Source: a virus (taxonomy: Duplodnaviria > Caudoviricetes). Taken from it: a DNA stretch of 64,000 bases. The stretch spans positions 128,001 to 192,000 of IMG/VR virus record IMGVR_UViG_3300011217_000001; one strand, written 5' to 3'. Below, piece by piece: positions 22,615 to 22,922 of the stretch. A program made the translations under genes and the position numbers. The stretch's first letter is position 1; each line of letters opens with the position of its first letter. The notes below the pieces were generated by a model that saw only the letters and a program-made list of their open reading frames with translations, was not told where the DNA came from and made no database searches.

Positions 22615-22645
22615 GGCATAAAGCCCACTCCCGAAGGAGTGAGCC
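22615..22645 (-). terminator. Hairpin + TTTATGCC terminator
   Basis: GCTCACTCC-TTCG-GGAGTGGGC-TTTATGCCCTTTT; the G-U pair only works on the minus strand. Confidence 0.75.
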
Positions 22646-22654
22646 TATATGCTT

Positions 22655-22892
22655 AGAATAAACCGCCACCCCAACCTAGCGGAAGAGTCAGGCAACAACG
22701 CCGCATTCGATTCAGCCCGAGCAAGTAGGCCTTCGCGAGGTGGGGCGATGAAGCAGGGTACGTGCTGCGCTTGAACTCCGACTATGGCTCTCCCTATAGA
22801 GCTTTCCCGGACACGAACGGGATAGATGATCAGCACGCATGGCCGTGCTTACATTCGGGATATCGGAGGAGCTGCAGTGCACGCTGACTTGT
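22655..22892 (-). ncRNA. Candidate structured non-coding RNA (~240 nt), family unknown
   Basis: Nested helices between a promoter-like motif and a terminator; no credible ORF. Confidence 0.55.
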
Positions 22893-22922
22893 ACAGATTA
22901 TAGGTCTGAAGGTGTAGCAAAT
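22891..22922 (-). promoter_or_regulatory. Putative phage early promoter
   Basis: CCTTCAGACCTATAATCTGTAC, variant of recurring motif. Confidence 0.45.

Follow-up and report, generated by a model that had tools for sequence, protein, structure and literature searches.

A strongly conserved, folded RNA of about 230 bases encoded between two small genes of Xoo-sp14-like jumbo phages

We asked what is encoded in a gap of 340 nt (22582-22921) that lies in a jumbo phage genome between the minus-strand ORFs 22417-22581 and 22922-23176. The DNA analysed, referred to throughout as the window, is 64,000 nt long and corresponds to bases 128001-192000 of a 230,357-bp virus record; nearly all of its genes are carried on the minus strand. 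An earlier note, made from the letters of the window alone, had proposed that the gap encodes a novel structured non-coding RNA (ncRNA) with its own promoter and terminator. The same unannotated gap is found in Xanthomonas phage Xoo-sp14, between genes 54 and 55, and the synteny around it, with a gene for an 84-aa protein upstream and one for a 54-aa protein downstream, is identical in all relatives. Neither of these two neighbour proteins has a family in Pfam or PHROGs. Among ten neighbouring proteins searched, the sole family match was that of a 444-aa protein (24904-26238, minus strand) to Pfam IF2_N (E = 2e-6, 27.8 bits, above the cut-off).

The source phage is a phiKZ-like virus (Chimalliviridae) of about 230 kb related to Xoo-sp14 (232 kb), which was the sole close isolate in a tblastn search of phage records. 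Its genome encodes a phiKZ-type RNA polymerase beta subunit with a Pfam RNA_pol_Rpb2_6 match. In tblastn this subunit matched 306 phiKZ-like records, with an amino acid identity of 91.6% to Xoo-sp14, followed by 41% to FLC9 and 37% to LucasX. The phiKZ-type multisubunit RNA polymerase and this placement among known members assign the phage to the Chimalliviridae; a Pfam search of the phage for tubulin (PhuZ) was negative. Chimalliviruses transcribe their genes inside a protein shell, translate them outside it, and do not need the host RNA polymerase. Xoo-sp14 has itself been treated as a chimallivirus (10.1101/2024.03.21.585822).

In comparison with Xoo-sp14, the gap is 95% identical and the RNA body within it 97% identical (7 of 236 positions differ). 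In Xoo-sp14 (MT939492) the RNA would lie at about 41867-42102. Third codon positions are 49-85% identical between the same two phages, typically around 65%, and the neighbouring 178-aa protein is 49% identical. Over 200-nt windows of a 45-kb alignment with Xoo-sp14 the mean identity was 79% (sd 8.4), and the gap ranks in the top 1%. Across the 230-kb genome, no other ORF-free block with an identity of 93% or more is as long (340 nt, compared with 125-194 nt for the others). Conservation by itself is not unique to the gap, since intergenic DNA is generally well conserved in these phages (0.59-0.95 identity to Xoo-sp14). Window-wide, intergenic DNA was overall better conserved than third codon positions, so that in this group of phages regulatory punctuation changes at a slower pace than coding sequence. 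We also found further, shorter ORF-free blocks (125-230 nt) that are 93-98% identical to Xoo-sp14, at window positions 32153-32284 and 4439-4667 and at genome coordinates 21174-21329, 228553-228746, 24651-24775 and 13136-13279; some of the other conserved blocks hold promoter and terminator modules only. In addition, a small minus-strand gene (13202-13471), a homologue of Xoosp14_68 (89 aa), is 97% identical to Xoo-sp14 and 93% identical at third codon positions, compared with about 65% in other genes. Recent exchange, very strong constraint or a non-coding role could account for this pattern.

The comparative set consisted of five sequences in two clades, namely the window, Xoo-sp14 and three more copies. 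The protein database contained two additional forms of the 84-aa neighbour and one form of the 177-aa gene, and the contigs of those proteins yielded three more instances of the gap, with the gene order unchanged, from a complete 234-kb phage (L026/L029) and two Logan contigs (L027 and L028). These three form the second clade, clade 2. Relative to the window, clade 2 is 92% identical in the junction arm, 93% in the 3' part and 87-90% in the promoter region; the internal stretch 22698-22752 is just 55-62% identical, and the flanking genes are 63-85% identical. Conserved arms combined with a freely drifting insert would be the pattern expected of a functional folded RNA, and this mosaic conservation argues against a recent exchange of DNA.

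Searches beyond these copies delimited the distribution of the element. A tblastn search of phage records with the flanking proteins returned nothing besides Xoo-sp14, scans of IMG/VR with DNA patterns and flanking proteins gave chance matches (L003, L005) or nothing, and scans of metagenome contigs for relatives gave nothing. A 26/27-base match to 22698-22724 in two Bryobacterales MAGs from GTDB (L006:6479-6505 and L007:4226-4252) was judged to be due to chance, because the sequence is coding there (a 639-aa ORF) and nothing else aligns. Two covariance models, R1 and R2, matched the full-length RNA in five relatives with 201-304 bits; they found no homologue in FLC9, LucasX, RTH11, phiKZ or 201phi2-1, and no second copy of the RNA in the phage's own genome. 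By these sequence comparisons, the RNA is specific to a small Xoo-sp14-like genus of nucleus-forming Xanthomonas jumbo phages.

A consensus fold was computed from the five sequences with RNAalifold (Table 1), and covariation was scored on a conservative set of 59 core pairs, in which 99.7% of cells contain standard pairs. At the top of the long stem P1 the fold opens into a four-way junction with hairpins P2, P3 and P4. Much of this architecture had already been read from the window: the closing helix (22884-22889/22686-22691), the helix enclosed by it (22776-22781/22863-22868) and the three junction hairpins (22832-22849, 22805-22822 and 22787-22802) described in the earlier note are all in the five-sequence consensus. 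Outside the junction, the stem that had been drawn at 22715-22746 lies partly in the region that is unconserved in clade 2 and survives only as the hairpin 22714-22731, and a stem suggested at 22753-22768 has to be given up, as it competes with P1, which covariation favours.

Table 1. Positions in the window of the predicted RNA, its helices, the adjoining signals and the neighbouring genes
Feature	Position	Strand	Remarks
Upstream neighbour	22922..23176	-	84-aa protein; two hydrophobic stretches by eye
Upstream block TTTGCTACAC	22912..22921	-	invariant in all five sequences; possible promoter element
-10-like hexamer TATAAT	22897..22902	-	TATWAT in relatives; 7-8 nt upstream of the predicted 5' end
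Predicted ncRNA, ~230 nt	22655..22890	-	5' end ~22889-22890; 3' end in U run 22656-22662
Closing helix H1, 5' strand AGUCAG	22884..22889	-	pairs with 22686-22691; invariant in five sequences
Long stem P1, 5' strand	22862..22883	-	18 pairs, small bulges
Hairpin P2 of the four-way junction	22826..22854	-	loop GCCAUG invariant; one A-U to G-U change
Hairpin P3	22805..22822	-	two variable loop positions
Hairpin P4	22787..22802	-	one variable loop position; closing pair U-A to U-G
Long stem P1, 3' strand	22761..22782	-	consensus fold
Second arm	22698..22752	-	flanks 22732-22752 and 22698-22713 only 55-62% identical between clades; P5 mid-arm
Hairpin P5	22714..22731	-	loop ACUUGCUC invariant
Closing helix H1, 3' strand CUGACU	22686..22691	-	consensus fold
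Terminator T1	22656..22682	-	hairpin 22663-22682 and U run UUUAUUC; terminator scan
Punctuation hairpin T2	22616..22652	-	TATGCC at 22615-22620; belongs to gene-boundary system
Downstream neighbour	22417..22581	-	54-aa acidic protein; GGAG 7 nt before ATG

The collection of homologues and a covariation test had been put forward in the earlier note as a check, and they revealed three compensatory pairs in three different helices. Where the window has C-G at 22883/22761 in P1, the four relatives have U-A; at 22730/22715 in P5, clade 1 has G-C where clade 2 has A-U, and at 22681/22664 in T1, clade 1 has C-G where clade 2 has U-A. Three further pairs alternate between G-U and A-U, among them 22862/22782 in P1, which changes from U-G to U-A. 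None of six slid controls showed compensatory pairs, and the observed covariation score was reached by one of 500 shuffles. For the three covarying helices the test is not circular, as each had been called by the terminator scan or from the window's own sequence at a stage when the relatives were still to be found. The covariation amounts to just three events among five sequences from two clades, and H1 and P2-P4 show no informative variation in this set. Among the alleles of the window clade, the remaining differences are all located in hairpin loops or linkers. The alignment also identifies the strand: six pairs are G-U in some or all of the sequences and would be A-C mismatches if the RNA were read from the plus strand. 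Since these G-U pairs fit the minus strand only, the minus strand is the RNA strand.

Two alternative pairings were rejected. An alternative register at the base of P1, present in one minimum free energy (MFE) fold, is ruled out by the covariation at 22883/22761, and a long-range pairing of CGCCCCACCU with AGGUUGGGGUG in the single-sequence fold is not kept in clade 2. Single-sequence folding energy was no better than chance. Against dinucleotide shuffles, z was -1.2 and -1.4 for the 340-nt gap, and -0.2 (-0.21) and -1.2 for the 234-nt core. The earlier note had held that folding no better than shuffled sequence would speak against a structured RNA, and by single-sequence energy this is what we found, with values of -0.2 to -1.4 that are not significant. 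Support for the predicted fold is provided by the comparison between relatives, not by energy.

Upstream of the RNA, the five-sequence alignment contains a conserved series of TTTGCTACAC, a short variable spacer, TATWAT and CTGTACAAGTCAG, in which the TATWAT box is among the more variable spots. A sigma-70 scan found no promoter and no -35 element at the proper spacing. The box before the RNA shares only TTCA..CCTATA (10 of 16 bases) with a phage promoter-like family, the TTCA part of this likeness is missing in clade 2, and no copies of the promoter region were found elsewhere in the phage genome. The promoter-like motif previously placed at 22891-22922 is therefore retained in part: the TATAAT at 22897-22902 is present on the minus strand, and as TATWAT in relatives, but it has no sigma-70 match and no -35 element. 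A promoter of the RNA's own is plausible, and it is possible that the 5' end is instead generated by processing of read-through from the 84-aa gene.

An intrinsic terminator, T1, is present at the 3' end of the RNA, where it was found by the terminator scan and covaries, and the inner hairpin 22663-22682 most likely forms the 3' end of the RNA. This hairpin with its U run had been overlooked by the earlier reader, who assigned the terminator to 22615-22645. There is a strong minus-strand hairpin at that place (22616-22652, T2), but it is generic punctuation with about 40 copies and is not the RNA's own. We found these copies, all on the gene strand, at gene boundaries throughout the genome; each consists of CATA, a GC-rich hairpin of 10-12 bp with a tetraloop, and (C)TATGCC. 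In the window, the TATG positions of this element on the minus strand include 43012, 36663, 34191, 27733, 26327, 22620, 19002, 13546, 13041, 10554, 5022 and 3406. TATG is the core of the late promoter of phiKZ. The element is probably a combined terminator and start signal, and T2, which shows two compensatory-looking pairs between the clades when the five-sequence alignment is inspected by eye, is a generic copy that probably serves the downstream gene. The T2 core, GCCCACUCC-UUCG-GGAGUGGGC (22610-22650), resembles intergenic hairpins of the Pseudomonas jumbo phages Phabio, 201phi2-1, PhiPA3 and PA1C, and hairpins of N4-like coliphages as well, with 85-90% identity over 30-40 nt; this likeness is probably convergent terminator sequence. 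A second family, with the consensus GATTC..A-rich..TTTCAACCCTATATCA, is represented by about 15 copies, every one of them on the gene strand, versus 2-6 expected by chance. Its members, located on the minus strand at 26299, 34160, 50754, 69534, 69865, 13022 and other positions, usually follow the hairpin-TATGCC element by 15-25 nt, and the family looks like a class of phage promoter.

The RNA element was present in 20 public sequencing runs from 15 studies, of which four were compared over 22200-23300. In a metatranscriptome we found a contig of 217 nt that corresponds exactly to 22665-22881, and a run of unrecorded type from an unrelated study contained a contig of 210 nt that corresponds exactly to 22670-22879. 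Both short contigs are whole and without loose ends, whereas the DNA runs extend into the flanking genes. They end at 22665-22670 on the T1 side, begin 8-11 nt after the first base of H1, and carry nothing from the 84-aa gene. Their alleles are intermediate between those of the window and Xoo-sp14 and therefore represent natural populations and not one contaminant. The short contigs give a weak hint of a transcript that starts just after TATAAT (22897-22902) and stops at T1. They hint equally weakly at a discrete and abundant transcript, bearing in mind that contigs themselves cannot map the ends, strand or level of an RNA.

No known RNA family accounts for the element. At gathering thresholds, Rfam 15 had no match in the whole window, and at E<=10 the region 22400-23100 gave chance-level hits only (at most 19.5 bits, versus thresholds of at least 38), which agrees with the novelty originally proposed. 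ARAGORN found no tRNA or tmRNA gene in the 64 kb, again in line with the initial impression that the RNA does not look like either. The four-way junction and the three short hairpins on a stem are shared with tRNA and tmRNA, but the arms and linkers of the RNA described here have lengths that do not fit, with linkers of 7, 3, 2 and 4 nt, loops of 6-8 nt and a stalk of 18 bp. Like 6S RNA, Y-like RNAs and SRP RNA, which are stable, protein-binding bacterial RNAs, it has its ends tied in a helix, possesses near-invariant stems and loops and appears to be stable and abundant. Unlike 6S RNA it is not rod-shaped; it has no Rfam match and, by ARAGORN, no tRNA-like module. It also resembles riboswitch and attenuator leaders, in which a structured RNA is followed by a hairpin and U run directly upstream of a gene, but differs from them by the lack of a conserved antiterminator, by the second, constitutive hairpin and by its restriction to one phage genus.

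Short transcripts in which a start site is closely trailed by a terminator have been reported for 201phi2-1 and phiKZ by ONT-cappable-seq, including sRNA005 of 201phi2-1 and an sRNA upstream of gp182 in phiKZ, and most of the short RNAs of 201phi2-1 are derived from 5'UTRs (PMC11512511). A dRNA-seq study of phiKZ predicted a single sRNA of 75 nt, which was unconfirmed (PMC8244752). The RNA described here belongs to the same phage family as these small non-coding transcripts and shares with them a start and a nearby terminator. In contrast, it has no homology to them (model R2), is not located upstream of a tail gene, and is larger, multi-branched and supported by covariation, whereas theirs are simple predicted folds. 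We regard it as a new RNA family within a known kind, the phage-encoded small non-coding RNAs, found in one chimallivirus genus. The conservation, the compensatory changes, the strand-specific G-U pairs, the short contigs and the lack of an Rfam, tRNA or tmRNA match all support the original proposal of a novel structured ncRNA on the minus strand: what lies in the gap is a genuine gene for a folded RNA of about 230 bases, strongly conserved and without a known family.

The explanation that we favour, and consider fairly probable, is a stand-alone minus-strand gene for a stable structured ncRNA of about 230 nt that is specific to the Xoo-sp14-like genus of Chimalliviridae. Transcription would start a few bases past the conserved TATWAT, near 22889-22890, and would stop at the RNA's own hairpin and U run (22656-22682). 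The ends of the RNA would be joined by the 6-bp helix, one arm would be formed by the long stem ending in the four-way junction with its three hairpins, and the other would present an invariant hairpin loop flanked by freely evolving linkers. The RNA may accumulate to high levels, and we infer that it is stable and acts in trans by its shape, because its ends are paired, near-invariant junction strands and loops stand beside a drifting insert, and no antisense target was found. The near-invariant loops GCCAUG, ACUUGCUC and GGUUGGGG and the linker GUUGUUGCC adjoin this freely drifting insert, and within the phage genome there is no antisense match of at least 15 nt, only chance matches of 12-14 nt. 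Its most likely role would then be that of a scaffold or decoy bound to a protein of the phage or the host, and pairing with a target mRNA would be less likely. The conservation, the pairing, the strand and the lack of coding signal are established; that a protein-bound scaffold or decoy fits better than a seed-pairing sRNA is a guess, which we hold tentatively. A sponge for CsrA/RsmA was considered and dropped, as three GGA motifs were counted by eye versus about four by a rough chance estimate.

Since the synteny is identical in all relatives, a cis role is inseparable from a trans role. The RNA might be the 5' leader or attenuator of an operon downstream of it, made up of the 54-aa and 178-aa genes and those that follow, although we think this unlikely. 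The order of promoter-like box, structured RNA, terminator, ribosome-binding site and ATG is that of a classic attenuator, the 54-aa gene retains its place beside the RNA in all five sequences, most short RNAs of 201phi2-1 come from 5'UTRs (PMC11512511), and CGCCCCACCU (about 22738-22747) offers, in the window clade, an alternative partner for the loop and 3' arm of T1. T1 would then be a regulated premature terminator and the short RNA its 'off' product. Three observations weaken this proposal: CGCCCCACCU is replaced in clade 2, T1 nevertheless covaries, and a second hairpin, T2, comes next, which would halt read-through and probably carries the start signal of the downstream gene. Moreover, we found no match to a riboswitch or leader family and no conserved pair of mutually exclusive terminator and antiterminator folds, the sole candidate strand being absent from clade 2. 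It is less likely still that the element belongs to the 3'UTR of the 84-aa gene and has no promoter in the gap, in which case the RNA would be a nuclease-resistant remnant or a processed small RNA. The weak promoter evidence and the absence of a terminator between the stop codon (22922) and the RNA would suit such an origin, and the paired ends would shield a processed fragment. On the other hand, TATWAT and TTTGCTACAC lie at a fixed, conserved distance from the first base of H1, and both short contigs start 8-11 nt past the start of H1 without any sequence from the 84-aa gene. Even if this explanation held, the product would still be a conserved structured RNA, and its biogenesis alone would differ.

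We consider it very improbable that the conservation reflects an element acting as DNA, such as an origin, a packaging signal or a protein-binding site, or recently exchanged DNA, with no function as RNA. Intergenic DNA is conserved in general among these phages, and the gene at 13202-13471, 97% identical with conserved third positions, suggests that patchy recent exchange does occur. Nevertheless, compensatory changes preserve the pairing, the G-U pairs are strand-specific, and a neutral-looking insert lies between conserved arms. The short contigs match the bounds of the element, one of them from a metatranscriptome and the other from a run of unrecorded type, and the cumulative GC skew has no turn near the gap. 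A gene for a small protein is barely conceivable. Two candidate frames, a 63-codon ORF with a GTG start (22645-22836) and a 56-codon ORF (22712-22882), are open in both the window and Xoo-sp14, but in each of them five of the six changes relative to Xoo-sp14 alter the amino acid, without any third-position bias. Neither ORF of the gap has a ribosome-binding site, the short contigs end before the 63-codon ORF does, and clade 2 has unrelated sequence in place of the middle of both ORFs. The non-synonymous excess, the missing ribosome-binding sites and the frames disrupted in clade 2 bear out the view of the earlier note that the gap has no credible ORF.

To our knowledge, almost nothing is known about the ncRNAs of chimalliviruses, and the few that have been reported are short and lack comparative support or a known function. 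The RNA of Xoo-sp14-like phages, encoded between two tiny orphan genes, is larger; its multi-branched fold is defined, and its junctions and loops hardly vary. The public runs hint at high abundance in environmental and host-associated transcriptomes. With considerable reserve, we suggest that nucleus-forming jumbo phages may have here their first family of structured ncRNA supported by covariation, made in such quantity that it is seen by itself in unrelated transcriptomes and serving as a scaffold or decoy to capture a protein of the host or the phage. If so, this protein might be a nuclease, a defence sensor or a regulator that binds RNA, and host take-over, or traffic across the phage nucleus, would gain a layer based on RNA. 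Xoo-sp14, whose host is a rice pathogen, is available in culture, which makes the RNA directly testable; for phiKZ, mRNAs have been knocked down with antisense oligomers (10.1101/2024.07.31.605949). Binding of a host factor, if true, would be a new kind of phage take-over tool; without it, the RNA would still add a new family to Rfam and serve to mark this genus of phages.
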